Shown here in pieces: positions 10,856 through 47,650 of a stretch of 64,000 nt of DNA. The notes beneath the pieces are model-generated. The model saw only the letters and a program-made list of their open reading frames with translations, ran no database searches and was not told the origin of the DNA. The DNA is from Minisyncoccota bacterium (GTDB lineage Bacteria; Patescibacteriota; Minisyncoccia; Phycocordibacterales; UBA9973), in assembly GCA_041667145.1 (NCBI GenBank), contig JBAYFP010000001.1, positions 121,056 to 185,055 of the forward strand, given 5' to 3'. Both the position numbers and the translations under genes were made by a program. Position 1 is the stretch's first letter. Each line of letters begins with the position of its first letter.

Positions 10856-13222
10856 TTGCAAAGGTATATGAAAATAGCACTTTTAACTGGTGGACCATCT
10901 TTAGAACGTGGAATATCGCTTAATTCAGCTCGCTCAGTATTAGATCATTTGGAGGATGAAAATATTGAAATTATTCCTATTTATTTCGATTATAAAAAAA
11001 GGGCCTATAAAATATCAAAAGCTCAACTTTATTCTAATAACCCTTCTGATTTTGATTTTAAATTATCTAAAAATTCTTCTGCATTAAGTCAAAAATCTTT
11101 AATAAAATTTCTAAAATCTGTAGATATAGTTTTTCCAGCGATGCATGGTCCTTTTGGTGAGGATGGACAAATCCAGGCATTTTTAGAAAAGAATAATATT
11201 CCATTTATAGGATCAGGAAGTGACACTTGCAAGATGGCCTTCGATAAGTATGAAGCTAACAAAATTCTTAAAAAGGAAGGGTTTTTTACTTTACCTTCCG
11301 CATTATTAAAGATTTACTCTAAGGATAATGCAAAAATAGTAAAAAACTTTTTTAAAACTTACAAAATAAAAAGAGCCATAGTAAAACCTGCTACAGGCGG
11401 ATCTAGCATCGGAGTATTTTCAGTAAATACATGGAAGGAGGCCATGGAGAAGGCTGACATTCTTTTCTCAAAGAGAATGGATACAAGAGTAGTGCTCGAA
11501 CCTTTTGCAAAAGGTAAAGAATTCACGGTCATAATTTTACAAAATAAACTCGATATGCCGGTGGCCTTATTGCCATCTGAGATTGAGATGACATATCACG
11601 ATGGAAGGATTTTTGATTTTCGTAAGAAATATTTGCCTACAAACCAAGTCCAATACCATTGTCCTCCAAGGTTTTCTAAAGAAGTGATAAAGAAGATACA
11701 GATAGAGGCAAAGCAAATTTTTTCTATGTTTAAAATGAATGATTTTGCTCGTTTTGATGGCTGGATTTTAGAAGATGGGAATATTTGGTTTTCAGATTTT
11801 AATACAGTATCAGGAATGGAACAAAATAGCTTTTTATTTCAACAGTCTGCTCAATTTGGTATGAGCCATAGTGATTTTCTAAATTATGTAATAAGAAATT
11901 CATGCGCTAGGCAAGGTATAGCTTTTAATGAAAATTCTAAAAAAGTTCCAAAAAGGAAACCAGTTTCAGTAATTTTTGGTGGGCATACATCTGAAAGACA
12001 AGTTTCATTAATGAGTGGGACAAATGCTTGGCTAAAATTAAAAAAGTCAAAATTATATGAGCCCAAGCCATATTTATTAGATTTTGAAAATAATGTTTGG
12101 GAGTTGCCCTATGCGTTGACGCTAAATCACACGGTAGAAGAGATCTTTGATAATGTTAAAAATGCAAAAGCACGAAGAGAAAAAGTTCTAGATTTGATTC
12201 GATCAATCAAAGACGAACTTATGTTATCACAAAACGAAACTTCTGAAGAATTCTTTATTCCTAAGAAAATGTCATTTGATAAATTCATGGATCAGTCGAA
12301 ATTTGTTTTTTTAGGTCTTCATGGGGGTGATGGAGAGAATGGTAAGATTCAAAAGATGTTGACAGAAAAGGGTATAAAATTTAATGGTTCAGGCGAAGTG
12401 ACTTCGAGTCTTTGTATGGATAAATTTGAAGCTGGGAAATTTATAAGATGTATGAAAATGGATAACATAGGTATCGCTTCACAAAGGATGATTTATTTAA
12501 AAGATATCGATTTAGAAAAAATCGGGGAACTTTGGAAAAATCTTAGTTTAAAACTTGAAACAAAAACGTTGATTGTTAAACCAAAAGATGATGGATGCTC
12601 TACAGGTGTGGCTCATTTATATAGAGAAGAAGATTTAAAAAATTATCTTAAATATACATTGGAAGGTAAGAAATCTATTCCATCTGGAGTCTTAAAGAAT
12701 CAAAATACTATTATTGAAATGCCCCACAAAAGAATCAATGAACTTCTTTTTGAAAAATTTATTGAAACTGATTCAGTAAGTATAAGAGGTAATAAATTAA
12801 AACATTTGAGAAAGACTGGCTGGATTGAAGTCACTATTGGAATTTTGGAAAAAGAAAAAAAAATGTATGCTTTCAATCCTAGTATCACCATAGCTGAAGG
12901 AGAGGTGCTTTCGTTAGAAGAAAAATTTCAAGGAGGCACAGGCATAAATATTACTCCTCCACCTGCTGAAATTGTGAAATCAGTAATATTAAAAAAGGTA
13001 AGAGAAAGAGCAGAACAATTAGCTAAAGAAATCGGTATCAAGGGATACGCTAGAATAGATGCTTTTATGAATATAAATACAGGCGCATTGCTTGTCATTG
13101 AAGTGAATACCTTGCCTGGGCTCACTCCTTCGACAGTTATTTATCATCAAGCATTAGCTGAAAATATGGCTATTTTCCCAAGAGAATTTTTGGAAAAAAT
13201 AATAAAGAACTCTGGATATTAA
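10856..13222 (+). CDS. ddl: tandem-fused D-alanine--D-alanine ligase (two complete ATP-grasp Ddl modules in one 788-aa protein)
   Basis: Each half has Ddl N-terminal (KIALLTGGPSLERGISLNSA / VSVIFGGHTSERQVSLMSG), central (HGPFGEDGQIQAFLE / HGGDGENGKIQKML) and ATP-grasp C-terminal motifs; the next gene is alr. Confidence 0.8.
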   Translation: MQRYMKIALLTGGPSLERGISLNSARSVLDHLEDENIEIIPIYFDYKKRAYKISKAQLYSNNPSDFDFKLSKNSSALSQKSLIKFLKSVDIVFPAMHGPFGEDGQIQAFLEKNNIPFIGSGSDTCKMAFDKYEANKILKKEGFFTLPSALLKIYSKDNAKIVKNFFKTYKIKRAIVKPATGGSSIGVFSVNTWKEAMEKADILFSKRMDTRVVLEPFAKGKEFTVIILQNKLDMPVALLPSEIEMTYHDGRIFDFRKKYLPTNQVQYHCPPRFSKEVIKKIQIEAKQIFSMFKMNDFARFDGWILEDGNIWFSDFNTVSGMEQNSFLFQQSAQFGMSHSDFLNYVIRNSCARQGIAFNENSKKVPKRKPVSVIFGGHTSERQVSLMSGTNAWLKLKKSKLYEPKPYLLDFENNVWELPYALTLNHTVEEIFDNVKNAKARREKVLDLIRSIKDELMLSQNETSEEFFIPKKMSFDKFMDQSKFVFLGLHGGDGENGKIQKMLTEKGIKFNGSGEVTSSLCMDKFEAGKFIRCMKMDNIGIASQRMIYLKDIDLEKIGELWKNLSLKLETKTLIVKPKDDGCSTGVAHLYREEDLKNYLKYTLEGKKSIPSGVLKNQNTIIEMPHKRINELLFEKFIETDSVSIRGNKLKHLRKTGWIEVTIGILEKEKKMYAFNPSITIAEGEVLSLEEKFQGGTGINITPPPAEIVKSVILKKVRERAEQLAKEIGIKGYARIDAFMNINTGALLVIEVNTLPGLTPSTVIYHQALAENMAIFPREFLEKIIKNSGY

Positions 13223-13223
13223 T

Positions 13224-14363
13224 ATGTCTAAAAATCTTCCTCTTTCTTATATAGAAATATCTAAGGACAATTTAATACATAATGTAAAAGTACTTAAGAA
13301 ACTCTCGGGAAGGACCAAGATGATTGGGGTGATTAAGGGTAATGCTTATGGTCATGGGCAAAATGAAGTAGCCAAGATTTTGGAGCCGTATGTTGATTGT
13401 TTTCAAGTCAACAGCATTTCAGAGTTAGAATTATTACGCAAAGTAAGTAAGAAAAAAACATTTGTTTTGGGCTATATTCAGAAAGAAGATTTAGCAGAAG
13501 CCATAAAACTCGGCTGTGTGTTATCTATTTTTTCAATAGAGCAGATGCAGAATGTCTCTATTATGGCAAAGAGTTTAGGTAAAGTGCAAGAAATACATGT
13601 ACCTATAGATGCATATCTGGGTAGGGAAGGCTTTTTACTGAATGAATTACCTAAATTTTTTAGTGAACTTAAAAAATGCAAAAATGTAAGGCTTACAGGC
13701 ATGTATGCACATTTTGCAAATATAGAAGATACAAATAATTTTACACATGCGAAAAAGCAAATTAAAAAATATAATGAAGCAATAAAATTAGCTAAGAAAT
13801 TTGGATTTAATAAATTACAAACTCATATCTCTGCCACATCAGGACTTCTGGTATATGAATCAAAAAATATTAAAAATAAAAATACTTTTGTTCGTTTGGG
13901 TATAGGACTTTATGGATTGTGGCCATCAGAGCATATTAAATATTTATATAAAAGTAAATTTATTTTAAAGCCAGTACTTTCTTTGAAAACAAAAATTACG
14001 CAAGTAAAGATTTTACCCGCAGGTCATACTGTGGGGTATGGTTTGACGTATATGACTTACGAGCCGACGAAGATAGCTGTCATACCACTCGGCTATGCTG
14101 ATGGTTTTGATAGAGATTTTTCGAATAATGGAGAAGTACTAATTGGTGGCACGAGATGTAAAATCTTAGGAAGAATTGCGATGAATATGTTTGTTGTTGA
14201 TGTGAATCATTTAACAGATGTTAAGATCGAAGACGAGGTTGTGATTATCGGATCTCAAGAAGGGGAATGTATCACAGCAGAAGAAATTGCAAAAAAAATT
14301 GATACTATAAATTATGAAGTTGTCACTCGTTTGAGTTCTTTATTACCTAGAGTGATTGTTTAA
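13224..14363 (+). CDS. alr: alanine racemase
   Basis: PLP-lysine motif VIKGNAYGHG, 379 aa, typical C-terminal beta domain. Confidence 0.9.
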   Translation: MSKNLPLSYIEISKDNLIHNVKVLKKLSGRTKMIGVIKGNAYGHGQNEVAKILEPYVDCFQVNSISELELLRKVSKKKTFVLGYIQKEDLAEAIKLGCVLSIFSIEQMQNVSIMAKSLGKVQEIHVPIDAYLGREGFLLNELPKFFSELKKCKNVRLTGMYAHFANIEDTNNFTHAKKQIKKYNEAIKLAKKFGFNKLQTHISATSGLLVYESKNIKNKNTFVRLGIGLYGLWPSEHIKYLYKSKFILKPVLSLKTKITQVKILPAGHTVGYGLTYMTYEPTKIAVIPLGYADGFDRDFSNNGEVLIGGTRCKILGRIAMNMFVVDVNHLTDVKIEDEVVIIGSQEGECITAEEIAKKIDTINYEVVTRLSSLLPRVIV

Positions 14364-14446: not shown

Positions 14447-14605
14447 ATGTCACAAGAAAGACTTATAAAACTCGCCTGCACTAGTTGTAAGCGTATAAAT
14501 TACTGGTCAAGTAAAAACAAGAAACTCGTCACTAAAAAGATAGAGCTTAAAAAGTACTGTAAATGGTGTAAGAAGCAAGTTAAACATAAAGAGGCCAAAA
14601 AGTAA
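14447..14605 (+). CDS. rpmG: 50S ribosomal protein L33 (52 aa, not in ORF track because <60 aa)
   Basis: Translation MSQERLIKLACTSCKRINYWSSKNKKLVTKKIELKKYCKWCKKQVKHKEAKK: CxxC...CxxC zinc ribbon with the L33 hallmark KLELKKYCxxCxKHxxHKE. Confidence 0.8.
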   Translation: MSQERLIKLACTSCKRINYWSSKNKKLVTKKIELKKYCKWCKKQVKHKEAKK

Positions 14606-14677: not shown

Positions 14678-14748
14678 GGGCGATTAGTTTAGTGGTAGAA
14701 CAACGGTCTCCAAAACCGTTGGCGGGAGTTCGATTCTCTCATCGCCCG
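14678..14748 (+). tRNA. tRNA-Trp (anticodon CCA)
   Basis: Cloverleaf read by hand: acceptor GGGCGAT/ATCGCCC, anticodon stem ACGGT/ACCGT with loop CTCCAAA, T-loop TTCGATT; CCA is not encoded. Confidence 0.85.
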
Positions 14749-14853
14749 CTACTTAAATTTCATACTATTTTTGTGAACATTAATAAAGTTTGCTATAATT
14801 TATCATGTATTATTTATATTGTTTATTAATGTTTAGTAAGGTATACTAATGTT

Positions 14854-15105
14854 ATGGAAAATAAATTTATTTCAATAAAAGAAGCTGCAGAAATGCTTCA
14901 TGTGTCAAAATTAACTCTACGTAATTGGGATAGAGATGGAAAATTGTTTGCTTTGAGGCATCCTATCAATAATTACAGGGTTTATCACATAGAAGACATA
15001 AATAGAATTATTAAGCAGATTGAGTCTGGAGAAAAACCAACTAGAATGCCTCGAAAGGATAAACGCAAGAAATATATTGTACCGATAATTCATCTCAAAG
15101 ATTAA
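14854..15105 (+). CDS. MerR/excisionase(Xis)-family helix-turn-helix DNA-binding protein
   Basis: ISIKEAAEMLHVSKLTLRNWDRDGKL...YRVYHIEDINRII matches the MerR-type HTH signature; located 100 nt downstream of the tRNA. Confidence 0.6.
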   Translation: MENKFISIKEAAEMLHVSKLTLRNWDRDGKLFALRHPINNYRVYHIEDINRIIKQIESGEKPTRMPRKDKRKKYIVPIIHLKD

Positions 15106-15162
15106 CTAAAAACTATTTTTATAAAACTAAAAAATTATCCACAGTTTTAAGGGTTTTTTCAT

Positions 15163-15190
15163 TGTTTAATAGTGCTCATTTGTTTATAAT
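15163..15190 (+). promoter_or_regulatory. Candidate sigma70 promoter (TTGTTT-16nt-TATAAT) ending 6 nt before the ATG at 15197 (possible leaderless transcript)
   Basis: Read from sequence. Confidence 0.35.
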
Positions 15191-15196
15191 AATAGT

Positions 15197-18100
15197 ATGA
15201 AATTTACTGTTTTTTCTCGTAAAAAAATTCCACACAAAGTTGGAGGCTTTTCTCGTGTTATAAGACTGAAAATTAAATTAAGATTTGAAAAATTAAGAAA
15301 GAAAAAATTTGAAGAATCTATAGTGAGAATAATAAAAGAAAAAATGTTAATGAGAAAAGAAGAAATTAAGAAAATGATTAAAATAATAAAAGAAAACATA
15401 ATGCCGAAAAAAATGATAAACACAAAAAACATTTTAGTTTCTTTTTTTATTTTTTCTTTTTCTTTTTCTTTTTTATATAATCCAAATCAGGTTTTAGCTG
15501 TAGCGCCTACAGTAAATATTACATATAGTTCGAACCCAGTTAAAGCAGGGACACAGAGAATCTCAGTTACATATTCTTCTCAGCCTGCAAGTACTCCTAC
15601 CATTGGTATTAATCAACTAGGAACTACAGATATTCCAAATGGTACAGCTATGGTTCCTCCTTATAGTGATATCAATGCTCCTGGAGTCACTTGGTCAAAT
15701 CCTTTATCATCTAACATAGGATCTGCAGGTGGTTATTGGAATTCTATTGCCTATGGTAATGATATATTTGTAGCTGTTTCGAATTATGGATCAGGTAATA
15801 AAGTAGCAACATCTTCTGATTATGGTGTTACTTGGATTCCTAGGACACCTGCAGAGAGTAACAATTGGGAATCTGTTACTTTTGGCAATGGTATTTTTGT
15901 CGCAGTTTCAAGTAATGGTAATCATAGAGTTATGACCTCAGATAACGGAATTAATTGGTTTCCTCAAAATGTTACGGAAGATTATGACTGGCAATCTGTT
16001 ACTTATGATAATGATCATGGAGTTTTTGTAGCTGTTGCTGATTCTGGTACACATAGAGCAATGACTTCGTCAGATGGTATTATTTGGGAATATAAAACAA
16101 CAGGTTCATATTCTTGGAATTCTGTTGCTTATGGTAACGGAGTTTTTGTAGCTGTTGGTAATCTTGGTAAAATACAAAAATCAACAAACAGCGGTGATAC
16201 ATGGAATGATCCTCAAATAAATAGTAATTCGGCATATTTATATTCTGTTGCTTATGGTAACGGAGTATTTGTTGCAGTCGGGGCTAGTGGTACTATAAGA
16301 ACTTCTTCAGATTTTGGTGATACTTGGCAAGAGCAAACTTCAGGAACTGGTTTAACTATTTCAGATGTGACTTTTGGTAATAATACTTTTGTTGCAGTTA
16401 CTAATTCTAGTGCTAATTTGTTTTTAACTTCACCTGATGGTTTACATTGGACAAGTAGAACAGCTACAGCCGGTGCTACATCTATTGCTTATGGTACTCC
16501 TACTATCAGTGGTGTTGAGACCTCTATGTTTGTAGCAGTTGAGCGTACGAGCTCTCTTGGTACTAATTTAATTACTTCTACAAGTAGAAAATTAAGTTTT
16601 GATGCTGCTCATACATATTATTATGATTATACAGTTTGCGCTGCTGGTAATAGTGGCACTGGTGCTTGCGAGGGTAATTATGTAGATGGTACAGCGACAG
16701 TCACCTTATCAGATGTAAAAGATCTATATGGTGTTTCATATACCCCAAGTGGTACTACATTTACGATTGATACTACCGAAAGTGCTCCCGGTACTCCTGA
16801 TATGACAGCAGGGACAGATACTGGTTCCTCTAGCACAGATAATACTACTTCTGACACGACTCCTGATTTTACTATTTCTTGTGATACTGGAGCTACTGTC
16901 ACTTTATATAAGGATACAACTTCTTCAGTTGGTACGGGAACATGTTCTTCTTCAACGGTTACAATAACTTCATCAACTCTTTCAGCTGGTACTTATGCAA
17001 TGAACGCTAAACAAACTGATGCAGCGGGTAATACTTCGAGTGCATCAGGAAATCTTTCAGTTACGATTGACACAACTGCGCCTAGCGTCAGTACTGTTAC
17101 TTACTCTAGATCTAGTATAAAACAAAATGATACATTAACTATTACAGTTAATTTTAATGAAGCTTTAGCAATTACTAATCCTCCACAAATTGCGATTTCA
17201 GGAGTTAATAATCTTACAGCTACAAATATGACAGAAGGATATGAGACTTGTGATCGTCATCCATGTGCACAAGTGCTGAGTCCTTCAAGGTGGACTTATG
17301 ATTTTTCTATACAGTCAGGAAATGGTTCACCGACTGTTACTATAAGTGCAGGTCAAGATGCAGCAGGAAATATTATGACAAATGCCTCTTCTCCTACTAG
17401 TTTTTCTAGTTTTACAGTAGACAATATTGCTCCAACAAATCAAAATACTGTTTTTCCAACCTCAATTTCAAAAAAGAGTAGCGTGACAGTGACATCACCA
17501 AATATTGTTTCTGCAGGAGAAACAGGTGGTTCAATTTGGTTTGCTCCATCGGGAACAACTACATTTACAGCTGGTGCAACTATGACTACAGCAGGAGGGA
17601 CAGCCACAACTATTTTAGCTCCACTTACTGCAGGATCATATAAATTATTTGTCCGTGATGCAGCCGGAAATACATCTTTAGCCTCGACTGCGATTTTGAC
17701 TGTCGATAATACTGCACCGACTGTTGCCTTATCATATACCTCCGATCCAATTAAGGCGGGGACACAAACTATTACAGCTACATATTCTAAAGCGATTACA
17801 AGTATTCCAAACATTAGAGTTGATCAATATGGGACTGTGCCAGATGATCTTCTTTTTCATCCAATGACCAATAATGATAGTGGAGTTAATAAAGTTTGGA
17901 AATATGATTATACAGTTCATGCAGCTACTGATTCATGTCCACAAGGGGGAACTCCTCCTTGTTATGCAGATGGTACAGCTCAAGTATCTTTATCATCTAC
18001 CACAGATGTAGCGGGAAATACTTCTGGTACTCCTAGTAGTTCTACATTCATAATTGACACCGCAGCACCTACAAATTCTATCAGTGCTCCATCAGTTTCT

Positions 18101-21100
18101 TCTACTTCAATTGGTCCTGTAACATATACTGTTTCTTACTCAGGAGCAAATACTGTTTCACTTGCTAATGAGAATATAACTTTAATCAAAACAGGAACAG
18201 CTGATGGAACAGTCGCTGTTTCAGGTACTGGTATATCTTCTCGAACAGTGACTATTTCTTCTATCACTGGTACTGGCACTTTAGGAATTTCTATTGCTGC
18301 TGGTACTGCTTCTGATACTGCGGGAAATACTTCTCTAGCTATGGGAGCGTCTACTACTTTTGATGTAAGTAATGTTCCTTTAACAGTTGCAAGTATTTCT
18401 GTAGATTTAGCCTCAGGTTCATATAAATCTGGTCAAGCAATAATAACAACAGTAACTTTCTCTAAAGATGTTACATCGACTGGGAATGCAACTGTGACAT
18501 TTGATACGGGAGGGACATGTACTTTTACTATTAGTAATGCTTCATCAGGAAGTTGTACTTATACTGTCGGGGCTGGACAAAATTCTAGTGTTTTAGCTGT
18601 CTCGTCTGTTACGGGGACTATAAAAGATGCTGCCTTAAATTTATTGACTGCAACTACTCCTGTGATGAATATTTCTCCAACAAAAACAATTGTGATTGAT
18701 ACCACAGCACCAATTCTTTCCTTCACTGATGATGTAGCTGTTGGTCCTACATCTTCTGATACAATCACTGCTTCTTGGGTTGGTACTACTACTGGACAAA
18801 AAAAATGGATGTATGATACGGATAGAATTTGTTCACCTACTTCAACTGATTACACAATGACAGATAGTGATTCAATGGATCAAATTACAACCACAAACAA
18901 TACAAAATTTATTTGTTTGTATGGAGCAGATCTTGCTGGAAATTATTCAACACTAGCTTCAACAAATGATATAAATATTGATGCTAGTGGACCGACTGTC
19001 AGTATTTCTTCTCCCACTTCAAGCCCTACAAACGAAACAATAACTGTTAATGTTTTGTTTGATAAATCTGTTTCTGATTTTATTTATTCTGATATTTCAG
19101 TTACAAATGGTACAGTTTCATCTGCATCTTTTTCTGGCTCAGGAATGACTTATTCTTTTATAGTTACACCAACAGCTAATGGAGTAGTTGGTATAAGTAT
19201 TGGTTCAGGGGTGGCACATGATACAGCAGGAAATACAAACTCTGCTTCTAACTCTATATCCATAACATATAGTAATATAGGGCCGACAGTTATTTTAAGT
19301 TCCCCGTCACCTTATTATATTAATGGCTCATTCGATGTCGTTGCCACCTTTAGTGAACCTGTGACTGGGTTTACTTCAGCGGATATTACTATAAATGGTG
19401 GTATAGGTAATAGTTACGTAGACGGTTGGGCTGATGATGGTACAACGTATGAATTTTCTATTGTTCCAGATGGAGGAGGAATTGTTACTGTTGATATTAA
19501 TGGTGGAGTTGCTGTAAATGCAGCCCAAAATGGGAATATCGCTGCTACACAACTTTCTAGATTAAATGATACTGCTCCGCCTACTGCATATGATATCCCA
19601 ACAATTTGTTCTGTTGAAGGAAATTTATGTACTACCGCAGGTCAAAATGCCGATCCACAGGAAGTATATGATGTCGGTATGAGTACTATTTCTAGTACTG
19701 CCGAAGATGGTGATTCAGGAATAAGTAATGTTCAAATTTCAATTAATGATACTACTGCCAATAAATGGTATAACGGTACAATATTTACAACATCTGGTAG
19801 TGAAATATTATTAAATACAGTATTTGCATATTCAGAGAACGACGGGCAAACTCACTGGAGTTATGATTTTTCTAGCGTACCTTTAATTACTGGGGATACG
19901 TATACGATTAAAGTTACTGTTACAGATGGAGTATCTAATACAAATACTGCATCAGAATCTTTTAAATTTATAAATTCTGCACCAGAAGTTTCGAATGTAG
20001 TTCCATTGGAAGATGCGACTGGTTTAGTGACAGTGCATTATGATGTTACAGATAATGAATCTTCTCAAACTACGAATTATTTATTTTACAGTGTAGGAGG
20101 AAATGGTGTAGACGCAGGTTTAGCTAGTGACGCAACAAGTCTTAATTTATCTGACGCTACTTATTTCCCAAATTCAGGAATTATTCTTATAGATAATGAG
20201 ATGATTTCTTATACAAGTAAATCAGGAGCTACTCTTTTAGGTCTCACCAGAGGGATATTAAATACGATACCAGTTGCTCATGAAGATAGTGCTACTGTAT
20301 ATATAAAAGCAAGTTCAGCTACAGGTGGCGGAATTGGATTATCTGATGTTGGTACAAATAAGACTATAACTTGGCAAGCATCTTCTGATGCAAATGGATA
20401 TGAATATGATGTATCTTTTATTAAAGTTGTTGCAAATGATGGAGGAGTTGCCAATATGGTAGGTTCAGCAACTAACGAGGAAGGATTTATTCTTGATGCA
20501 AAAGCACCTACTGCAACAGTCACATTTGACGCTGGTGTCGGGGGAGAAACAAATAGTGGAGTAATTACTATTCCGATGCCTGAAGATATATCAGCTGTTG
20601 AGTATAAGATTACAGATGTAAATAATTTGTCAACAAATGCAGATTCTGGTGTTTGGAAATCTATAACGACTAGTACAACTTTACCTTGGACTTTTGATTC
20701 TAATATCATAGCAAGAAGTTTGAAATATCAGTTTAGAGATGCATACGGAAATATTGGATCTGAAATTACTACCTCTACCCAAGATCCGATTCCTACTAAG
20801 TTATTTACTGTCACTGATACATCGAATGTTTCATCAACACCTGCTTATCATCAAATGCATATGGATTGGCAGGCAGTGAGTTCTAGTGGGTTTTCTTCTT
20901 ATAAATTAGAATATAAAACATCTAGAAATAATATTAATTACATTGGTAATGGTTACACATCTATCTCTAGTACAGCTCTCAACAATGTTAGTACTGATAG
21001 TTATGATGATAAAAGTTTAACGCCAGATAATTTTTATAAATATCGTATAGGGATAATCGGTACTAATGGTAATGTTTCTATGAGATCAGATACTATTCTC

Positions 21101-24067
21101 GTTCGAGCAAATGGATTTCAGGATTATGATGAAGGTGGTGGAGGGACTGTTTTAAAAGCTCCAAAAGTAGAAAATGTTGTTCCGATTCAGGGATCAGATA
21201 AAAATGTGACAGTTAATTATCTTTTAACTGATACTTCATTATCAAAAAAGATTGATCTATTTTATGAAGGATATTTATTCTACAATATAGGAATTACATT
21301 ACCTGAAGATTCTTTTTCTGAATCTGAAGATACCTTAACACTTTCTGATACATCAAAATTAAAATCCTCTGGTTATATTTTAGTTAATAATGAAGTTATA
21401 AAATATACCTCTATAAGTGGAAATGTTTTAGAAGGTTTGACACGAGGTACTTGGCCTAATTTATCTACTTCTGGTAGAACGACTAGAACAAATTCTACTT
21501 TCTCTACAGGAGCTCCTGTTTGGATATTTGCAAATAATACTATCCCTATAGCTATAAATAGTAATTCCTCAATAATTTCTGGAGAAGCAGAATCAATAGT
21601 ATGGAATACAGAGGATGAAACAGGGTTAAAAGGTAATGTCTTTTCTAAAGTAGAATTCAAGGTATTAATTCATGACAATCAAACTTCTTCTCTAGGACCT
21701 ATATCCAGTCAGAATGATTCTTCCCAAGATGGAATTTTAAGTATTCTAGATCTTAGTGATACTGTTATTGAACCTACTGTCAAATCTACCAGTGCTGTTA
21801 TCACTTGGAATACTGATGATTATTCTGATTCTCTTATAGAATATGGAACGACTGAAGGTGTATATAATTTATCAAAAAGTAATTCAGATAGAGTTACGAG
21901 TCATCGTATTTATCTAAGTAATTTATTACCAAGTACGACTTATTTCTATAAAACAACTTCTACGAATGAATTGAGTGAAGCTATTACTTCTACGGGTCAA
22001 TTTACGACAAGTCCTAGTCCTGTGGTGACTAGTGTAAGTGTTCAAAGTGTGACTGATACAACTGCTGTAATAACATGGACCACAGCTGATGTTGTTTCAA
22101 GTTCTTATGTCGTATATTCGACTAATTCAGATTTAAGTGGCTCTATTACTGTCAATGATGATGAACTTGTGACAGATCACACAGTAACTTTAAGTGGACT
22201 TACACCAGAAAGGAATTATTATTTTAAAGTTTATTCTGTTGATGCTAATGAATATATTGGAGAAAAAACAGACAATCCTGATCCAGATACAAGTACTGAA
22301 GAAATATATTTTATGTTTACTACTGGATTAGATGAAACTGCTCCAATTATTTCTAATATTCAAATACCAATCATTACATATTCTGGAGTGGCAATAATAT
22401 GGACGACAAATGAGCAAGCCGATGGGCGGATAGGTTATAGTACAGAGAGCGTAGAAGATGGTGGGTCATACACTTATACTGATGTTGTCCCATTGTCTGG
22501 AGCATTAGTCACTAATCATGTCGCTACTATTGAAGATTTGAGGAAAACTACTAAATATTATTATGTAGTCGAATCTACAGATACACAGGGGAATACTGCT
22601 ACCTCTGATGAAGGGAATTTTACGACTGATAGACAACTAACAACTGGAGGGGGTAATGTTATAGGAGTTCTACAAGAGATCTATGATGCATTAATGAAAG
22701 AAAATGAAGAAAATAAGGCTAGATTAAAGAATCAGAGTTCTGATATTCCTGTTATATCAAATGTTGATATTGTAGATGTGAATGCCTTTGGAGCAACGAT
22801 CAGTTTCAATACAGATAAAGAAACTGTGGGGGGTGTCGATTATGGGAAAGATACAAAATATGGTAAAAATGAAGGTGATTTTATTTGGAGCACTACTCAT
22901 AAAATAGTTCTCAATGGTCTTACTATGGGTACTGATTATAATTTTAAGATAAAAGTTATCGATAGATATAGTAATATTGGTACTGGAGACAATCAGACTT
23001 TTAAAACGAAATTCTTAACTGAAAAACTCGCTGAACTTCAGAAGATAGAAAATATTGAGCAATTTCAAAAAGAAATAGAAGCCACAATTGAATCGATTTT
23101 GCCTTCGCTTGTGCCTCCTTTTATTGACCTACCGGCTATAACTAATATTACTGAAAATACTGCCACTATTACCTTCAAGACAAATATAAAAACATATCCA
23201 GTAGTAAATTATAGTTCCGATGCTACTTATGACATTACAAAAGAAAATCCATATGAAGGGGAAATAACGGATACAACTGAAAAAAGCTTAGACCATACGT
23301 TATCTCTTATTGGATTGAAACCTAATACAAAATATCACGTGATGGCGAAGGCGTACTCTCTTCCTCAAGTCATAGGTAAATCAGTAGATGTAACTTTTAC
23401 AACTAAACCATCGAAAATAAAAGCAACGATTACGGAACGTAAAAATGATTCGTTTACAATAGTATGGGTTACTGATGGCCCTACTTCTTCAATAGTAGAA
23501 TACAAAGATTTGAAAACAAATAAAACAGGAAGAATATCTGATGACGCAAAAAATACTTCACATTCTGTAAAAATAGAAAATCTTACCCCTGGTACCTCAT
23601 ACACGGTAGATGTTTCAGGATACAATGATATAGGCAATCTAGTAGAGGGATCTGAGACTCTAACAGTAAATACACTTACAGATACTGTTCCTCCGGTCAT
23701 CTCTAATTTTAAACTTGATAGTGCATTAGTATTAGGACGTACTGATAAGACTCAGACGATAGTATCATGGACTACAGATGAGCCATCCACCTCTATTGTT
23801 TATTATGAAGAAGGTTCTGGGTCACCTGATAAAGCACTTGCCAATAAACAAGAAAATAGCGAGCTATCAATAAACCATGTCATTATCTTGACTACATTAA
23901 GACCGGGTACAGTTTATAGATTCCAGATAGCTTCGAGAGACAATGCTAATAATATCAATACGCTTCCTATTCGAACCATCATCACACCAAGACCAAATGA
24001 ATCCATTGTTGACATAATCTTCAAGAATTTTGACGAGACGTTTAATTTCTTGAAAAATGTGCAGTAA
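15197..24067 (+). CDS. giant secreted/cell-surface protein (2956 aa): K-rich N-terminal extension plus hydrophobic signal/anchor, BNR/Asp-box beta-propeller, multiple Ig-like domains, at least six FN3-like domains
   Basis: Asp-box repeats (SSDYGVTW, TSDNGINW, SSDGIIW, STNSGDTW, SSDFGDTW, SPDGLHW) with YGNGxFVAV blades. Repeated TIDTTAPS / TVDNTAPT / IIDTAAPT / VIDTTAPI domain boundaries. FN3-like repeats (AVITWNTDDYSDSLIEYGTT..., TAVITWTTADVVSSSYVVYST..., VAIIWTTNEQADGRIGYST...). An alternative start at ATG 15401 gives a classical signal peptide. Confidence 0.8.
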   Translation: MKFTVFSRKKIPHKVGGFSRVIRLKIKLRFEKLRKKKFEESIVRIIKEKMLMRKEEIKKMIKIIKENIMPKKMINTKNILVSFFIFSFSFSFLYNPNQVLAVAPTVNITYSSNPVKAGTQRISVTYSSQPASTPTIGINQLGTTDIPNGTAMVPPYSDINAPGVTWSNPLSSNIGSAGGYWNSIAYGNDIFVAVSNYGSGNKVATSSDYGVTWIPRTPAESNNWESVTFGNGIFVAVSSNGNHRVMTSDNGINWFPQNVTEDYDWQSVTYDNDHGVFVAVADSGTHRAMTSSDGIIWEYKTTGSYSWNSVAYGNGVFVAVGNLGKIQKSTNSGDTWNDPQINSNSAYLYSVAYGNGVFVAVGASGTIRTSSDFGDTWQEQTSGTGLTISDVTFGNNTFVAVTNSSANLFLTSPDGLHWTSRTATAGATSIAYGTPTISGVETSMFVAVERTSSLGTNLITSTSRKLSFDAAHTYYYDYTVCAAGNSGTGACEGNYVDGTATVTLSDVKDLYGVSYTPSGTTFTIDTTESAPGTPDMTAGTDTGSSSTDNTTSDTTPDFTISCDTGATVTLYKDTTSSVGTGTCSSSTVTITSSTLSAGTYAMNAKQTDAAGNTSSASGNLSVTIDTTAPSVSTVTYSRSSIKQNDTLTITVNFNEALAITNPPQIAISGVNNLTATNMTEGYETCDRHPCAQVLSPSRWTYDFSIQSGNGSPTVTISAGQDAAGNIMTNASSPTSFSSFTVDNIAPTNQNTVFPTSISKKSSVTVTSPNIVSAGETGGSIWFAPSGTTTFTAGATMTTAGGTATTILAPLTAGSYKLFVRDAAGNTSLASTAILTVDNTAPTVALSYTSDPIKAGTQTITATYSKAITSIPNIRVDQYGTVPDDLLFHPMTNNDSGVNKVWKYDYTVHAATDSCPQGGTPPCYADGTAQVSLSSTTDVAGNTSGTPSSSTFIIDTAAPTNSISAPSVSSTSIGPVTYTVSYSGANTVSLANENITLIKTGTADGTVAVSGTGISSRTVTISSITGTGTLGISIAAGTASDTAGNTSLAMGASTTFDVSNVPLTVASISVDLASGSYKSGQAIITTVTFSKDVTSTGNATVTFDTGGTCTFTISNASSGSCTYTVGAGQNSSVLAVSSVTGTIKDAALNLLTATTPVMNISPTKTIVIDTTAPILSFTDDVAVGPTSSDTITASWVGTTTGQKKWMYDTDRICSPTSTDYTMTDSDSMDQITTTNNTKFICLYGADLAGNYSTLASTNDINIDASGPTVSISSPTSSPTNETITVNVLFDKSVSDFIYSDISVTNGTVSSASFSGSGMTYSFIVTPTANGVVGISIGSGVAHDTAGNTNSASNSISITYSNIGPTVILSSPSPYYINGSFDVVATFSEPVTGFTSADITINGGIGNSYVDGWADDGTTYEFSIVPDGGGIVTVDINGGVAVNAAQNGNIAATQLSRLNDTAPPTAYDIPTICSVEGNLCTTAGQNADPQEVYDVGMSTISSTAEDGDSGISNVQISINDTTANKWYNGTIFTTSGSEILLNTVFAYSENDGQTHWSYDFSSVPLITGDTYTIKVTVTDGVSNTNTASESFKFINSAPEVSNVVPLEDATGLVTVHYDVTDNESSQTTNYLFYSVGGNGVDAGLASDATSLNLSDATYFPNSGIILIDNEMISYTSKSGATLLGLTRGILNTIPVAHEDSATVYIKASSATGGGIGLSDVGTNKTITWQASSDANGYEYDVSFIKVVANDGGVANMVGSATNEEGFILDAKAPTATVTFDAGVGGETNSGVITIPMPEDISAVEYKITDVNNLSTNADSGVWKSITTSTTLPWTFDSNIIARSLKYQFRDAYGNIGSEITTSTQDPIPTKLFTVTDTSNVSSTPAYHQMHMDWQAVSSSGFSSYKLEYKTSRNNINYIGNGYTSISSTALNNVSTDSYDDKSLTPDNFYKYRIGIIGTNGNVSMRSDTILVRANGFQDYDEGGGGTVLKAPKVENVVPIQGSDKNVTVNYLLTDTSLSKKIDLFYEGYLFYNIGITLPEDSFSESEDTLTLSDTSKLKSSGYILVNNEVIKYTSISGNVLEGLTRGTWPNLSTSGRTTRTNSTFSTGAPVWIFANNTIPIAINSNSSIISGEAESIVWNTEDETGLKGNVFSKVEFKVLIHDNQTSSLGPISSQNDSSQDGILSILDLSDTVIEPTVKSTSAVITWNTDDYSDSLIEYGTTEGVYNLSKSNSDRVTSHRIYLSNLLPSTTYFYKTTSTNELSEAITSTGQFTTSPSPVVTSVSVQSVTDTTAVITWTTADVVSSSYVVYSTNSDLSGSITVNDDELVTDHTVTLSGLTPERNYYFKVYSVDANEYIGEKTDNPDPDTSTEEIYFMFTTGLDETAPIISNIQIPIITYSGVAIIWTTNEQADGRIGYSTESVEDGGSYTYTDVVPLSGALVTNHVATIEDLRKTTKYYYVVESTDTQGNTATSDEGNFTTDRQLTTGGGNVIGVLQEIYDALMKENEENKARLKNQSSDIPVISNVDIVDVNAFGATISFNTDKETVGGVDYGKDTKYGKNEGDFIWSTTHKIVLNGLTMGTDYNFKIKVIDRYSNIGTGDNQTFKTKFLTEKLAELQKIENIEQFQKEIEATIESILPSLVPPFIDLPAITNITENTATITFKTNIKTYPVVNYSSDATYDITKENPYEGEITDTTEKSLDHTLSLIGLKPNTKYHVMAKAYSLPQVIGKSVDVTFTTKPSKIKATITERKNDSFTIVWVTDGPTSSIVEYKDLKTNKTGRISDDAKNTSHSVKIENLTPGTSYTVDVSGYNDIGNLVEGSETLTVNTLTDTVPPVISNFKLDSALVLGRTDKTQTIVSWTTDEPSTSIVYYEEGSGSPDKALANKQENSELSINHVIILTTLRPGTVYRFQIASRDNANNINTLPIRTIITPRPNESIVDIIFKNFDETFNFLKNVQ

Positions 24068-24126
24068 TATCTAAAAGTCGAGATAAAACAAGATTATTAA
24101 TTAAGTTAAATATTTAAAAGGTAAAA

Positions 24127-24576
24127 ATGGAAGAAGAAAAAAAGAAAAGAAAAATATTGTTGGTGGATGATGATGAAATGATGCGTATATTTTTCCGTGA
24201 TATTTTTTGGATGCATGGAAAATGTGATGCTTATGATGTAGAGATGGCTTCTTCCTTAGAGGAGGCTGAAAAAATAATAGAAGATGAGAAAACGAGACCA
24301 GACATAATGTTTTTAGATATTTTCTTATCTTCTACAAAAAAGAAAGGGAATGTTTCTACAGAACAAGTAAATCGTTCTTTGGAATTTATCGGTAAAATAA
24401 AAGAAAGTAAAGTTTTTTCCAATATAAATATTATTATTTATTCTGGACAAAAATATCAAGCATTAGAAGAAGCAGTAATGAAACTAGGTGTAGACGGATA
24501 TTTAATAAAGGGTGAACTTATGCCTAAAGAGATAATTTCTTTTACAGATCAAATACATGGAACAACCAATCATTAA
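24127..24576 (+). CDS. stand-alone response-regulator receiver (REC) domain protein
   Basis: LLVDDDE acidic pocket, FLDIFL phospho-acceptor Asp, conserved S/T and K positions; no output domain; overlaps the next gene by 20 nt. Confidence 0.65.
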   Translation: MEEEKKKRKILLVDDDEMMRIFFRDIFWMHGKCDAYDVEMASSLEEAEKIIEDEKTRPDIMFLDIFLSSTKKKGNVSTEQVNRSLEFIGKIKESKVFSNINIIIYSGQKYQALEEAVMKLGVDGYLIKGELMPKEIISFTDQIHGTTNH

Positions 24577-25954
24577 ATTAAACAATGTAAGTCTTTGGTA
24601 TGAAAAAGGAAAAACGACTGAACTAAAAGCTTTAAAAAACATTACCATTGAAATAAAGAAAGGAGATTATGTCGCCTTTTTCGGTCCGTCTGGTTGTGGT
24701 AAAACGACCATACTTTATGCTATTTCCGGTATTGATCGTTTCCAGGAAGGATCAATTTTAATTAATGGCAGAGATATATCTCCACTTACAAACCAAGAAC
24801 TCGCCATATTTAGACAAACCGGTATAGGAATAGTCTTTCAACAGTTCAATTTAGTTCCTTCTTTAACTGTATTAAAAAATGTTGCGTTACCGATGCTTTT
24901 TGTAGGTATATCATCTGAAAAAGCTGATAAAGAAGCATTAAAATTACTAAAACGTTTGGATCTTCTCGATTTACAGGATCGTTTTCCCTCAGAGCTTTCA
25001 GGAGGACAACAACAAAGAGTAGGTATCGCTCGTGCTCTTGCGAATGATCCGCCGATAATTATTGCCGATGAGCCATTGGGTAACCTAGACTCTATAAACG
25101 CTAAAAAAGTTTTGGAATTCTTAAAGGAATTAAACGAAAAAGATGGACGAACTATCATAATGGTGACGCATGAGGCTTGGAGTCTTCGTGACGTTAAAAC
25201 TATTTACCATATGAAAGATGGTACTATTACGGAGATAGAAAAAACTACTCCAGAGACGATAGCACAATCTATCGCTAGTCGTTTGAATAAACAATTATCT
25301 TCTTCGAATGGAGAAGATAAAGGAAAAGATTCTAAAGGAGGGGATGCAAATGCAGAAAGTATTTCTGCACACTTACTTGCAAACTTTTTATTACGCGGAT
25401 ATTCACTAGATGAAATAAGTCGTTTTGAATTATTTGTAAATGAACGATTTTCTAATAAAATTGATAAGAAAGAATTTCATGAATTGATAAATAAACCATT
25501 TAAGGATGGTGGAGTAGGTTTGTGGAAAAAGAAAGCAGAACGAGTGACAGAATATTTAGAAGAAGTTATAGATAAAAAACATAGTATTAGCAGTATTTGT
25601 GAACTTATAGAAAAAACTCCTGAAGCAGCTATTTTTGATGAAATTAAAAATGTTCGACAATGGCTTATTGAAGGATATACTGGCGAATTAAATGCTTCGC
25701 AAATTTTAGCACTTGATCAAGTTATTTCCGATAGGATTAGAAATTATATTTCGAGAGAAAAAGTTGTTCAACTATTAGATCTCTCTAGTAATAAATTTGG
25801 CGTAGGACTTTCTTTTAGGGCAGCACAAATTTTAGCAGAGAAATTAGAGTTGTTATTAGAAGGCGTTCCAAATGATAAAATTAATGTTAATATAAGTGGG
25901 GAGAAAGAAATCAGTAAAGATACAGACGCAACTAATTTTCTAAAAAAATTATAA
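24557..25954 (+). CDS. ABC transporter ATP-binding protein (MacB/FtsE-like) with ~235-aa C-terminal extension of unknown function
   Basis: Walker A GPSGCGKTT, signature LSGGQQQRV, Walker B IIIADEP, H-loop; residues ~230-465 have no recognisable match. Confidence 0.85.
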   Translation: MEQPIIKLNNVSLWYEKGKTTELKALKNITIEIKKGDYVAFFGPSGCGKTTILYAISGIDRFQEGSILINGRDISPLTNQELAIFRQTGIGIVFQQFNLVPSLTVLKNVALPMLFVGISSEKADKEALKLLKRLDLLDLQDRFPSELSGGQQQRVGIARALANDPPIIIADEPLGNLDSINAKKVLEFLKELNEKDGRTIIMVTHEAWSLRDVKTIYHMKDGTITEIEKTTPETIAQSIASRLNKQLSSSNGEDKGKDSKGGDANAESISAHLLANFLLRGYSLDEISRFELFVNERFSNKIDKKEFHELINKPFKDGGVGLWKKKAERVTEYLEEVIDKKHSISSICELIEKTPEAAIFDEIKNVRQWLIEGYTGELNASQILALDQVISDRIRNYISREKVVQLLDLSSNKFGVGLSFRAAQILAEKLELLLEGVPNDKINVNISGEKEISKDTDATNFLKKL

Positions 25955-25963
25955 TTTAATAAC

Positions 25964-27172
25964 ATGTTTAATAAACAATTAAAATTTCATGAGCTAGTGA
26001 CGCTTTCTCTTAGGTCTTTCCGTACTAAACCGCAGAGAGCTTTTTTAACTATTATTGGCATGTCTATTGGTATTGCTGCAGTGTTATTGTTGGTTTCTCT
26101 CGGGTATGGACTCCAATATATATTGATTGGTAAATTAATGACGACTGAAGATTCATTGATAACAATGGAAATATCATATCCGACTGAAAGTAATATGTTA
26201 ATCAAAAAATCTGTTTTAGATAATTTAAAAACTTATCCAGATATTGCTGAAGTGAGCCCAATCGCTGAATTTCCAGGTGAAATTAGTACCCCTGGTACCT
26301 CAAGCCTTTTAATTAATACACTTATCGTTGATCCTGCTTATTTTAGACTTACTGGATTAACACCCAATATTGGAAAAACTATAGGAGAAGGTACAGGTGT
26401 GGTGGTTTCAAATCAAACGTTAACAGCGTTGGGTCTAGTAGCAGATCAGGTATCTTTAAATAAAATATTTGATCTAAAAGTTTCTTATCCTAGTGAAGAT
26501 ATAAACTTTACTGAAAAAATAATCTCCTCTATACCAGTTCCGCTTAAAGGGATTATAGTAGACGATACTATGGCTCCGACTGCCATAGTATATGCAGATG
26601 CATTTTCTGAAACACCCCCGTCTTATCGTAGGGCACTCGTTAAGGCAAAAAATGTAGATATATTAGAAAGTCTTCGTGATAAATTGATTAGTGAAGGATT
26701 TTTAGTGTCAGCACGTATTGATCTAGTTACTCAAGCTCGTAAAATTACGAATATTATTACTATGATATTAGGAGTTTTTGGTGTGACAGCACTTGTCGTT
26801 TCAGCAATTGGAATGTTCAATACTATGCTTGTAGGTTTTCTGGAACGTATTTATGAAGTTGGAATTTTGAAATCCTTAGGTGCTACAGATTATGATGTAC
26901 GTAATCTTTTCTTAGTGGAAGCTTCGTTTATGGGTTTCCTTGGTGGATTGGGTGGTATCATCATAGGTATTGGTGGAGGTAAGATTCTCAATCTTTTGCT
27001 GAGTCTTTTATCGACAAGATTTGGTGGAAATGCCATAGAACTTTTTATAATTCCTTGGTGGTTTGTTTTTCTTATTTTAGTTGTTTCAGTGATAATAGGT
27101 TTCTTTTCTGGCTGGTGGCCAGCACATCGGGCAGCGGGTCTTTCTCCTAAGGAAGCTTTTACAAAGAGATAA
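25964..27172 (+). CDS. ABC transporter permease, FtsX/MacB family
   Basis: N-terminal TM helix, large extracytoplasmic domain, C-terminal FtsX-like 3-TM bundle (ILKSLGATDYDVRNLFLVEASFMGFLGG). Confidence 0.8.
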   Translation: MFNKQLKFHELVTLSLRSFRTKPQRAFLTIIGMSIGIAAVLLLVSLGYGLQYILIGKLMTTEDSLITMEISYPTESNMLIKKSVLDNLKTYPDIAEVSPIAEFPGEISTPGTSSLLINTLIVDPAYFRLTGLTPNIGKTIGEGTGVVVSNQTLTALGLVADQVSLNKIFDLKVSYPSEDINFTEKIISSIPVPLKGIIVDDTMAPTAIVYADAFSETPPSYRRALVKAKNVDILESLRDKLISEGFLVSARIDLVTQARKITNIITMILGVFGVTALVVSAIGMFNTMLVGFLERIYEVGILKSLGATDYDVRNLFLVEASFMGFLGGLGGIIIGIGGGKILNLLLSLLSTRFGGNAIELFIIPWWFVFLILVVSVIIGFFSGWWPAHRAAGLSPKEAFTKR

Positions 27173-45625: not shown

Positions 45626-45628
45626 TTC

Positions 45629-46345
45629 ATGTTAATACAACTAAAAAATATCACAAAAGAATACGACAACAGTGGTGTCATTACTAAAGTTCTCCGAGGA
45701 GTAAGTCTAGATGTAGAGGAAGGAGAATTTTTAGCTATAATGGGCCCATCTGGTTCTGGTAAATCGACCCTAATGCATATAATAGGTTTTCTTGATCGTG
45801 CAACGAATGGTACATATCTCTTTGATAATGAAGACATAAAGAATTTTAATGATAATGAACTTGCTTATATTCGTAATGATAGAATCGGTTTCGTTTTTCA
45901 ATCATTCAATCTTCTTGCACGTACTTCTGTACTAGACAATGTGATCCTTCCACTTACTTATAGTAAAAAGAAAAATCATGTGGAATTAGCTACTGAAGCA
46001 TTAAGGGCAGTAGGACTGGAAAATAGATTAAATTTTCTTTCAAATCAGATATCTGGAGGTCAAAAGCAACGTGTAGCCATAGCTCGTGCCCTCGTCTGTG
46101 ATCCGAAAGTTATTTTTGCAGATGAACCGACAGGAAACCTCGATTCAAAAAGTGGTGCGACAGTCATGAGTATTTTGGGGCGTCTAAATAACGAAGGTCG
46201 CACTATTATCCTCGTCACTCATGATAGGACAGTCGCCGAACATGCTAATCGTATCATCACCATCAGAGATGGATCTATAGTTTCGGACGAAAAAAATGCT
46301 AATCCAAGAAGAAGCAAAATTGAAACTGTAGAAGAAGATATATAA
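45629..46345 (+). CDS. ABC transporter ATP-binding protein, MacB/LolD type
   Basis: [35 protein letters not shown]. Confidence 0.9.
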
Positions 46346-46346
46346 T

Positions 46347-47612: not shown

Positions 47613-47650
47613 TTATAAAGTAGAAAGTTGTAAAGTTTATAAAGAAAAAA

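Follow-up and report, generated by a model that had tools for sequence, protein, structure and literature searches.

Does the giant surface protein encoded in a candidate phyla radiation (CPR) genome belong to a dedicated envelope system, and if so, is that system native to its lineage or acquired? The question is raised by a five-gene block in a 64-kb stretch of DNA (the window) from the Minisyncoccota bacterium contig JBAYFP010000001.1. The block is encoded on the forward strand and comprises a helix-turn-helix (HTH) gene (14854-15105; 83 amino acids, aa), the giant gene (15197-24067; 2956 aa), a gene for a stand-alone receiver protein (REC; 24127-24576; 149 aa), an ATP-binding cassette (ABC) ATPase gene (24557-25954; 465 aa) and a permease gene (25964-27172). 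An earlier note, made from the sequence alone, had given the coordinates of these five open reading frames (ORFs) exactly, and the domains it named were essentially as stated. The proteins are deposited as MFA6585678-82 with generic names only from the PGAP annotation pipeline. All functional statements made here are computational.

To characterise the distribution of the block in relatives, we used three independent anchors, which together gave about 80 loci in Paceibacteria-type CPR genomes (labelled L002, L003, etc.). Note that the taxon labels of some bins are unreliable and that N-gaps in metagenome scaffolds break some gene calls. An alignment of the C-terminus of the giant protein (A1) was scanned against one genome per species of the Genome Taxonomy Database (GTDB). 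This anchor identified 28 species-level CPR loci (labelled as Paceibacterota, Paceibacteria, Nomurabacteria or Adlerbacteria, in a few bins evidently by mistake). The permease gene is located downstream in all 25 loci that have enough downstream sequence, and an ABC gene bearing the same extension as in the window is downstream in 24 of the 25 testable loci. REC is present in 24 of the 28 loci. This linkage persists at giant C-terminus identities of just 33-43%. The second anchor, an alignment of the ATPase extension (A6), was scanned against JGI metagenomes and duplicates were removed. Of 40 loci, 39 have the permease downstream. REC is found directly upstream in 32 of 39 loci and elsewhere in the locus in two more, and among the 23 loci in which 2.5 kb or more of sequence precedes the ABC gene, 17 have the giant C-terminal module there. 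L091 and L099, among the six that do not, have a divergently oriented secreted protein with a start resembling that of other giants. The complete one, from L099 (at least 1510 aa), contains NHL/lactonase-type propellers and FN3 domains. The third anchor was the REC subfamily, for which the loci of three members were examined; REC is directly 5' of a gene for a 435-447-aa ABC ATPase in all three.

Gene order within the set is not fixed. L105 and L108 have the order ABC-permease-REC, and in L049 the ABC and permease genes are followed by genes for a Kelch propeller protein (1486 aa) and an FN3 protein (667 aa, 40% identical to the base of the window giant). Outside the set, the flanks vary and include DnaK and type IV secretion system genes, LepA/DivIC/enolase, fmt/def/hisS, rplQ/rpsI, ftsA/ftsZ, murJ, and mraZ-dcw. 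Weak FN3 matches in Acidobacteriota, Nitrospirota, Omnitrophota and Planctomycetes had no ABC, REC or permease neighbours, and the distant FN3 proteins L047 and L048 (27-29%) were unlinked to an ABC gene. The giant C-terminus, REC, the ABC ATPase with its extension, and the permease thus recur together across all three anchors while their flanks change, which bears out the earlier proposal of a dedicated neighbourhood. We consider it very probable that these genes are functionally linked. The operon type had also been called undescribed, and our full-text literature searches likewise found no description of the module. As a separate observation, in one subclade (L091, L111 and L113/L114) REC-ABC-permease lies directly upstream of mraZ-rsmH-(ftsL)-PBP-murE (PBP, penicillin-binding protein).

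The giant protein is composed of a variable propeller/immunoglobulin (Ig) head on a strongly conserved FN3 base. Its N-terminus (15197-15502) has a MKxxxxKKIPxxVGGFS motif and a Lys-rich stretch of ~60 aa, followed by a signal peptide or anchor at aa 76-102. The hydrophobic segment (aa 76-94) is followed by VLA/VAP, an AxA-type site, and it is the only transmembrane (TM) candidate in the giant, which also lacks an LPxTG motif and a lipobox. All homologues have an N-terminal signal peptide, in agreement with the earlier description of a secreted protein. The KKIPxxVGGFS motif and an open frame (15197-15421) are kept in the window, L007, L009 and L025, and the giants of other relatives have short classical signal peptides. 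The motif and Lys-rich stretch may represent an extended signal peptide or a cytoplasmic recognition tail.

The predicted beta-propeller head (15689-16606; aa ~165-470) contains six S/TxDxGxxW Asp-box-like motifs between aa 206 and 418, spaced by ~41 aa (a DNA period of 120-129 nt), and a degenerate seventh blade. No match to Pfam BNR was obtained, PSII_BNR was below its cut-off (E 0.005), EPTP was weak, and the propeller has no sequence relative in the PDB. The motifs of the six-blade Asp-box propeller proposed earlier are present, and since Pfam BNR has no match, "BNR" describes a motif pattern and not a family assignment. The head is followed by a variable stalk (16634-21766) with two Big_13 domains, two Big_12 domains and a semi-conserved middle (aa 1500-2190), and then by the conserved base (21764-24067), which has six FN3/Pur_ac_phosph_N-like domains, two helical linkers and the C-terminal tail ESIVDIIFKNFDETFNF. 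Matches above the Pfam gathering score were to Big_13, Big_12, fn3 and six Pur_ac_phosph_N (FN3-like) stretches, so the Ig-like domains and at least six FN3 domains previously reported for the giant are both present. Within the Pfam-empty middle of the giant we also observed two units of the form ...IL(I/V)(D/N)NE(M/V)I(S/K)YT..SG..L.GLTRG..., at aa 1667 and 2065 (positions 20195 and 21389); the NE(M/V)I(S/K)YT unit is also kept in L002, L003, L006 and L036.

Conservation of the giant is concentrated at its C-terminal end. Residues 1-1500 (propeller and Ig) are common to only 1-5 of 17 full-length homologues, residues 1500-2250 to 8-11, and residues 2400-2956 to 15. The mean column identity of alignment A1 is 67%, with most of the invariant columns in the final ~450 aa, and the linker EQFQxEIExTIESILPSLxPPF (aa ~2620-2650) and the C-terminal tail are near-invariant. 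Heads have been exchanged between lineages and include Asp-box-like, Kelch, NHL/lactonase, Calx-beta and other Ig arrays. As the giant is exported by the Sec pathway, has no covalent or membrane anchor and has a conserved cell-proximal base, it would need a receptor on the cell, for which the permease ectodomain is the obvious candidate. Eight relatives (L002, L007, L019, L021, L023, L026, L035 and L036, where it spans 11790-13628) have an additional gene of ~610 aa between giant and REC, encoding a CarboxypepD_reg membrane protein with a signal anchor, a repeated GW(I/V)NF-motif domain and several TM segments. This gene is missing from the window, and its product was ruled out as a kinase.

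The permease matches Pfam FtsX (PF02687; 66.9 bits against a cut-off of 25.5) and MacB_PCD (PF12704; 42.2 against 27). It has four TM segments (26-44, 264-282, ~316-349 and 360-378), and the MacB_PCD domain of ~220 aa (residues 45-263) is extracytoplasmic, between TM1 and TM2. Its PDB sequence matches are to YtrF (9o9x_C; 8e-23) and, over the full length, to MacB (5gko; 1e-19), with FtsX at merely 2e-4. It also aligns over its full length with LolC, LolE and LolF, and YtrF, MacB and LolE are its nearest relatives overall. Based on these comparisons, the permease is classified as a MacB/LolC/YtrF-like type VII ABC protein and not as FtsX sensu stricto. The module has the domains of the type VII ABC/MacB superfamily (a 4-TM FtsX-type permease, MacB_PCD, and a nucleotide-binding domain (NBD) with intact motifs), while the FtsE, FtsX, LolCDE and MacB equivalog models all score below their cut-offs for it. 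The earlier label of an FtsX-type permease in an "FtsEX-like" module therefore holds for the Pfam FtsX domain but not for the system, which falls in the MacB/type VII ABC superfamily.

The NBD of the ATPase (24557-25246) belongs to the MacB/LolD/BceA/YtrE group. ABC_tran matches aa 26-174 (121.7 bits), the Walker A, Q-loop, signature, Walker B and H-loop motifs are intact, and the best PDB matches are MJ0796, Spr0694, BceA, LolD, MacB and YtrE. The NBD is followed by a C-terminal tail of 235 aa (aa ~231-465), of which ~170 aa form a helical domain. No Pfam family was found on aa ~230-465. The long extension pointed out earlier is real. The extension (25355-25864) is made up of two tandem helical repeats of ~80 aa, each half with an invariant GxG (GGVGL/FGVGL), and is an internal duplication (hhalign 94%, E 1e-7). 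It is predicted to fold into eight helices (predicted local distance difference test (pLDDT) 83.7, predicted template modelling score (pTM) 0.75). We did not find a solved structural homologue of the extension, and a fold search with the full-length ATPase model returned ABC NBDs only; the NBD was poorly modelled there because of a shallow alignment. A helix-hairpin-helix-like reading of the GxG motifs is a lead only. A role as a histidine phosphotransfer (HPt) or dimerisation and histidine phosphotransfer (DHp) domain is unlikely, as there is no conserved His.

An exhaustive HMMER scan of 1.84 billion representatives found the extension in only 175 clusters. In full-length-sized clusters (~415-505 aa) it lies at residues ~255-435, after the NBD as in the window. 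The other MacB system of the window has a plain 238-aa ATPase that lacks the extension, so the extension marks this module specifically. Split ABC genes in L002, L003 and L006 were attributed to scaffold N-gaps or misjoins, not to biology. In these ENA scaffolds the gaps are at 8900-10000 in L003, at ~9700-9950 in L002, and at ~5400 and ~9950 in L006; in L003, giant Ig-repeat sequence has been joined into the ABC gene.

REC has Response_reg (PF00072; 40.2 against a cut-off of 30.2) as its sole Pfam domain. With a receiver fold, phospho-acceptor residues and no output domain, it is a CheY-like single-domain response regulator, and it belongs to a closely knit subfamily whose members are ~145-150 aa long; an insertion following beta3 is conserved. 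Nearly all of 28 homologues retain the DD, D, S/T and K residues, whereas L028 has another residue in place of the acceptor Asp. The REC and ABC genes overlap by 20 nt in the window and by 4-38 nt in nearly all loci, which fits translational coupling of the two. A receiver-only regulator gene overlapping the ATPase gene had been described in the earlier note, and both features are confirmed.

The HTH protein matches Pfam MerR (PF00376; 37 against a cut-off of 28.2), HTH_17 (PF12728; 33 against 27) and MerR_1 (PF13411; 31.1 against 21.6). It is a MerR-type winged HTH of only 83 aa with no effector domain, and it does not have the C-terminal coiled coil and effector domain of canonical MerR proteins. 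The excisionase model TIGR01764 scored 24.5, under its cut-off of 28.8. The HTH gene was found upstream of the giant gene in 7 of the 11 loci in which the 5' end of the giant gene is visible, and it is co-directional with the giant gene in the window and divergent in seven relatives. Its promoter/operator (14819-14853, forward strand) consists of TTGTTT, 17 nt, TATACT, 6 nt and ATG, and belongs to a consensus that is near-invariant in eight loci (alignment A7): TTG[CT]TTA[GT]TAATGTTTA[GT]TAA[TG]GTATA[CA]T, ~6 nt, ATG. The motif occurs once in the window. The near-invariance of the promoter spacer fits an operator role, and the HTH protein is probably a conserved local regulator, likely autoregulated, rather than an excisionase. 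The earlier "Xis-like" label is accordingly not upheld, as the excisionase score is sub-threshold, the window has no integrase or recombinase, and the HTH gene is a conserved member of the neighbourhood. In relatives, an inverted copy of the operator motif, AAACATTACTAAA, is present 35-45 nt further upstream.

A putative promoter of the giant gene (15162-15206, forward strand) has the same geometry (TTGTTT, 17 nt, TATAAT, 6 nt, ATG at 15197), and this arrangement, common to both genes as TTGTTT, 17 nt, TATA(C/A)T, 6 nt, ATG, suggests leaderless transcripts. The putative giant promoter overlaps the right arm of a 26-nt inverted repeat that brackets the HTH cassette. The left arm (14754-14779) is directly 3' of tRNA-Trp, and the right arm (15181-15206) overlaps the -10 element and ATG of the giant gene. 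The arms are complementary at 23 of 26 positions with a 16-nt perfect core, and a perfect core of at least 16 nt was seen in 1 of 300 dinucleotide shuffles. No inverted repeats were found around the HTH gene in relatives. The repeat, together with the co-directional HTH gene here and the divergent HTH genes of the seven relatives without repeats, indicates a past inversion. Speculatively, the cassette could be an invertible switch; no recombinase was found in the window.

The block begins downstream of rpmG (14447-14605) and tRNA-Trp (14678-14749) and sits between ddl/alr and a murA-like gene. This position had led to the suggestion that it is a horizontally acquired island at tRNA-Trp with an Xis-like excisionase. 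The start of the block directly after a tRNA, an HTH protein of the MerR/HTH_17 superfamily (which includes excisionases) and the inverted repeat around the HTH gene would all be in keeping with an island. However, the composition of the block is indistinguishable from that of its flanks: the GC content at third codon positions (GC3) of the five genes is 0.17-0.25 against a window range of 0.13-0.31, and their codon-usage distance is 0.074-0.147 against 0.072-0.171. A slight rise in GC at 16-19 kb can be put down to second codon positions in a Thr/Ser/Gly-rich protein. The break from the housekeeping context that had been described does exist, but nothing in the composition marks it. Pfam searches with nearly all ORFs of the 64-kb window detected no integrase, recombinase or transposase, and no tRNA-derived direct repeat or att site was detected either. 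The block is lineage-wide and found in varied housekeeping contexts. tRNA-Trp is not beside it in any of the 13 related loci examined for tRNAs, and the window flank genes alr, ddl, rpmG, miaA and murA are next to it in none of the related loci. Furthermore, the promoter/operator of the HTH gene and its position beside the giant gene are conserved. An island origin is largely refuted by these results and we regard it as extremely improbable. As the same gene set has been kept together in dozens of related species, the block is a native, vertically inherited envelope module of Paceibacteria-type CPR bacteria.

Which known systems does the module resemble? Type VII ABC systems act on extracytoplasmic partners by mechanotransmission (PMC7668044, PMC8333309, PMC12646458). 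FtsEX, with its partners EnvC, PcsB, CwlO and RipC, shares with the module a separate ATPase and a 4-TM FtsX-domain permease with an extracytoplasmic domain, and a likely common mode is conformational control of a secreted partner with helical segments. In contrast to FtsEX, the extracytoplasmic domain of the module is MacB_PCD and not FtsX_ECD, the partner is a ~3000-aa propeller/Ig/FN3 protein that lacks hydrolase, LytM and CHAP domains, a 235-aa tail extends the ATPase, and a REC gene is apparently coupled to it in translation. The FtsX models TIGR00439 (36.8 against 255) and NF038347 (29.8 against 225) score far too low on the permease, as does the FtsE model TIGR02673 on the ATPase (195.9 against 264.85). 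The best full-length similarity of the permease is to MacB (MacB_PCD plus FtsX), and the NBD is near Spr0694, which points to MacAB-TolC and YknXYZ/Spr0693-0695. Unlike in these systems, NBD and permease are separate proteins, an outer membrane duct is missing, and no HlyD-family adaptor is encoded in the block or in related loci.

LolCDE and YbbAP-TesA, like the module, have a dedicated extracytoplasmic partner encoded nearby, but the giant is neither a carrier nor a lipase and has no lipobox. The LolC/E model TIGR02212 (53.8 against 362.45) and the LolD model TIGR02211 (200.3 against 307.75) are again below their cut-offs. BceAB-BceRS is similar in having a MacB-family ABC transporter tied genetically and functionally to phospho-signalling, and BceA is among the best PDB matches of the NBD. 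It differs in its 10-TM BceB permease, intramembrane-sensing histidine kinase and OmpR-type DNA-binding regulator, in place of which the module has a 4-TM permease, a receiver-only protein and no kinase in the cluster. LapA/LapBCE/LapDG shares the concept of a giant repetitive adhesin displayed under the control of an adjacent ABC system and a cytoplasmic signal. LapA depends on a type I secretion ABC transporter, an adaptor, an outer membrane protein, a C-terminal RTX signal and c-di-GMP/protease control, whereas the module has a giant with a Sec signal and no RTX match, a MacB-type ABC and a receiver-domain signal. YtrEF of Bacillus subtilis provides the best PDB match of the permease (YtrF), YtrE matches the NBD, and this system has no adaptor either. 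YtrEF is linked to cell-wall properties (PMC8060467), and our literature searches turned up no giant partner, REC or ATPase extension for it; the YtrE chain in 9o9x has just 251 residues, from which we conclude that YtrE has no extension. Four features of the module appear to be new: a giant partner of the propeller/Ig/FN3 type, a receiver-only regulator apparently coupled in translation to the ATPase, the duplicated helical extension of the ATPase, and the restriction to Paceibacteria-type CPR bacteria.

We tentatively favour, with slightly less than even confidence, a model in which the giant is held, deployed or actuated through its conserved base by a type VII ABC mechanotransducer that the receiver gates. 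The data show which genes are present and what domains they encode, how conservation is distributed, that the genes are inherited together and that their composition is native; the contacts between the proteins, the direction in which control runs and the role as an adhesin are our inferences. Once its signal peptide has been cleaved, the giant would be held on the cell by its conserved base, which would dock on the extracytoplasmic domain of the permease; in some relatives the extra CarboxypepD_reg membrane protein may add to this anchoring. ATP binding and hydrolysis would be relayed across the membrane, as in FtsEX-EnvC, LolCDE, MacAB and YbbAP-TesA, so that the giant is mounted, reshaped or released. 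The phosphorylation state of REC would gate the ATPase by protein-protein contact, plausibly via the helical extension, and the 83-aa MerR-type HTH protein, as a local transcription regulator, would autoregulate from its conserved operator. The presumed target of the variable head is a glycan or the surface of a host or partner, and a role in episymbiont attachment is plausible for this candidate.

Several observations weigh against this model. L029 has giant and permease genes with neither ABC nor REC, L088 and L097 have REC-ABC-permease with no giant within 10 kb, and L112 has REC-ABC with no permease or giant. Along with L010, L016, L018 and L049, which lack REC, these show that the gene set is modular and not obligate. 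The extension is kept in loci that lack REC (L010, L016, L018, L049, L099 and L101) and therefore cannot be a REC dock alone. No histidine kinase or other phosphodonor was found in the window or in the related loci examined, and the HTH operator motif is missing at the giant's own promoter in the window. The permease-giant and REC-extension contacts are themselves ones that we infer, and MacB-family pumps often serve efflux or peptide resistance.

One alternative is that REC-ABC-permease is an independent exporter or resistance pump for a small molecule, lipid or antimicrobial peptide, comparable to MacB, YknYZ, BceAB and YbbAP. It would then be a neighbour of the giant only through common regulation of envelope genes or a gene order peculiar to the lineage, and the two would not be coupled physically. 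The NBD and permease do score best against efflux or extractor relatives (MacB, BceA, Spr0694/5 and YtrEF), the REC-ABC link recalls Bce-type signalling, L088 and L097 keep the three genes with no giant, and uvrC is upstream of the ABC gene in L051. Against a pump, the adjacency of a giant-type gene survives low identity, permuted order and divergent orientation while the other neighbours all change; neither a membrane-fusion protein nor a kinase nor a DNA-binding regulator is encoded in the block; and the organism already has a canonical HlyD-MacB system. We therefore consider a pump unlikely, if still worth serious attention. A second possibility, which we judge to be quite improbable, is a Lol-like extraction or release machine that pulls the N-terminal signal-anchor of the giant precursor from the membrane or passes the protein on to the wall or surface layer. 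The conserved cytoplasmic KKIPxxVGGFS/Lys-rich tail would be the feature that the extension or REC recognises, and the ABC system would act once in biogenesis with no permanent dock. This would account for the conserved N-terminal motif and long basic tail that precede the hydrophobic segment in a subset of giants, including that of the window. The permease matches LolC/E/F over its full length, and LolCDE and YbbAP pull hydrophobic moieties from the outer leaflet (PMC8333309, PMC12646458). In many relatives with the same ABC system, however, the signal peptide is short and classical, with an AxA site, and the tail is missing. Moreover, what is conserved in the giant together with the ABC system is its C-terminal base and not its N-terminus, and the giant has no lipobox.

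It is very unlikely that the block is simply the FtsEX cell-division system of the lineage with the giant as an unrelated neighbour. The Pfam FtsX match of the permease, the position of the module directly upstream of mraZ-rsmH-PBP-murE in L091, L111 and L113, and the location of the block between ddl/alr and murA in the window would suit such a system. Yet the FtsX and FtsE equivalog scores given above are far under their cut-offs, the extracytoplasmic domain is MacB_PCD instead of FtsX_ECD, and in L049 a distinct FtsX that bears FtsX_ECD is encoded immediately next to the module. There is also no hydrolase or EnvC-like partner in the block, and an EnvC-like M23 protein is encoded elsewhere in the window.

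CPR bacteria (Patescibacteria) are thought to live attached to other cells. To our knowledge, the mechanism of this attachment and its regulation are largely unknown. The proposed receiver-gated mechanotransducer would tie a head-variable giant surface protein to an ATP-driven machine and to one of the very few signalling proteins in these tiny genomes. This makes the module a tangible candidate for controlled attachment to hosts or partners, or for remodelling of the cell surface, in many Paceibacteria species. It would also add a giant adhesin-like protein to the known partners of type VII ABC systems, which comprise amidase activators, lipoprotein carriers, efflux ducts and a lipase. The tandem helical ATPase extension and the distinctive REC subfamily provide handles for finding and annotating the system. 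A bolder and rather doubtful extension of the model is an inside-out adhesion switch, in which the phospho-receiver gates the ATPase via the extension and the MacB-type domain extends, retracts or releases a ~3000-aa host-binding protein, giving ultra-small episymbionts an integrin-like logic of attachment and detachment. The inverted-repeat HTH cassette might add a phase-variable layer to such a switch.

The remainder of the window has a GC content of ~33% and a dense housekeeping content. Its genes include those for ATP synthase subunits, MreB, ribosome recycling factor, an M50 protease, a double D-Ala-D-Ala ligase, alanine racemase, ribosomal protein L33 and MiaA, as well as a MurA-like enzyme, ParB, RelA, TopA, DprA, seryl-tRNA synthetase, PBP2, FtsW, MurG and MraY. 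An Rfam scan of the window found tRNAs only, and a promoter/terminator scan showed no enrichment over shuffles. Four ORFs (9156-10679, 36540-37379, 50101-50910 and 62517-63890; 507, 279, 269 and 457 aa, respectively) had no Pfam family at the thresholds used. The second MacB-type system (44066-48910) is canonical, with an HlyD adaptor (44066-45625), the 238-aa ABC ATPase and two MacB_PCD/FtsX permeases. The EnvC-like protein (56463-57734, reverse strand) has a coiled-coil region and a Peptidase_M23 domain; it is of the usual FtsEX partner type and is encoded far from the block. The double ligase gene (10856-13222) is a 788-aa ORF with a TTG start that encodes two complete D-Ala-D-Ala ligase units, a tandem Ddl fusion, and is located immediately 5' of the alanine racemase gene.

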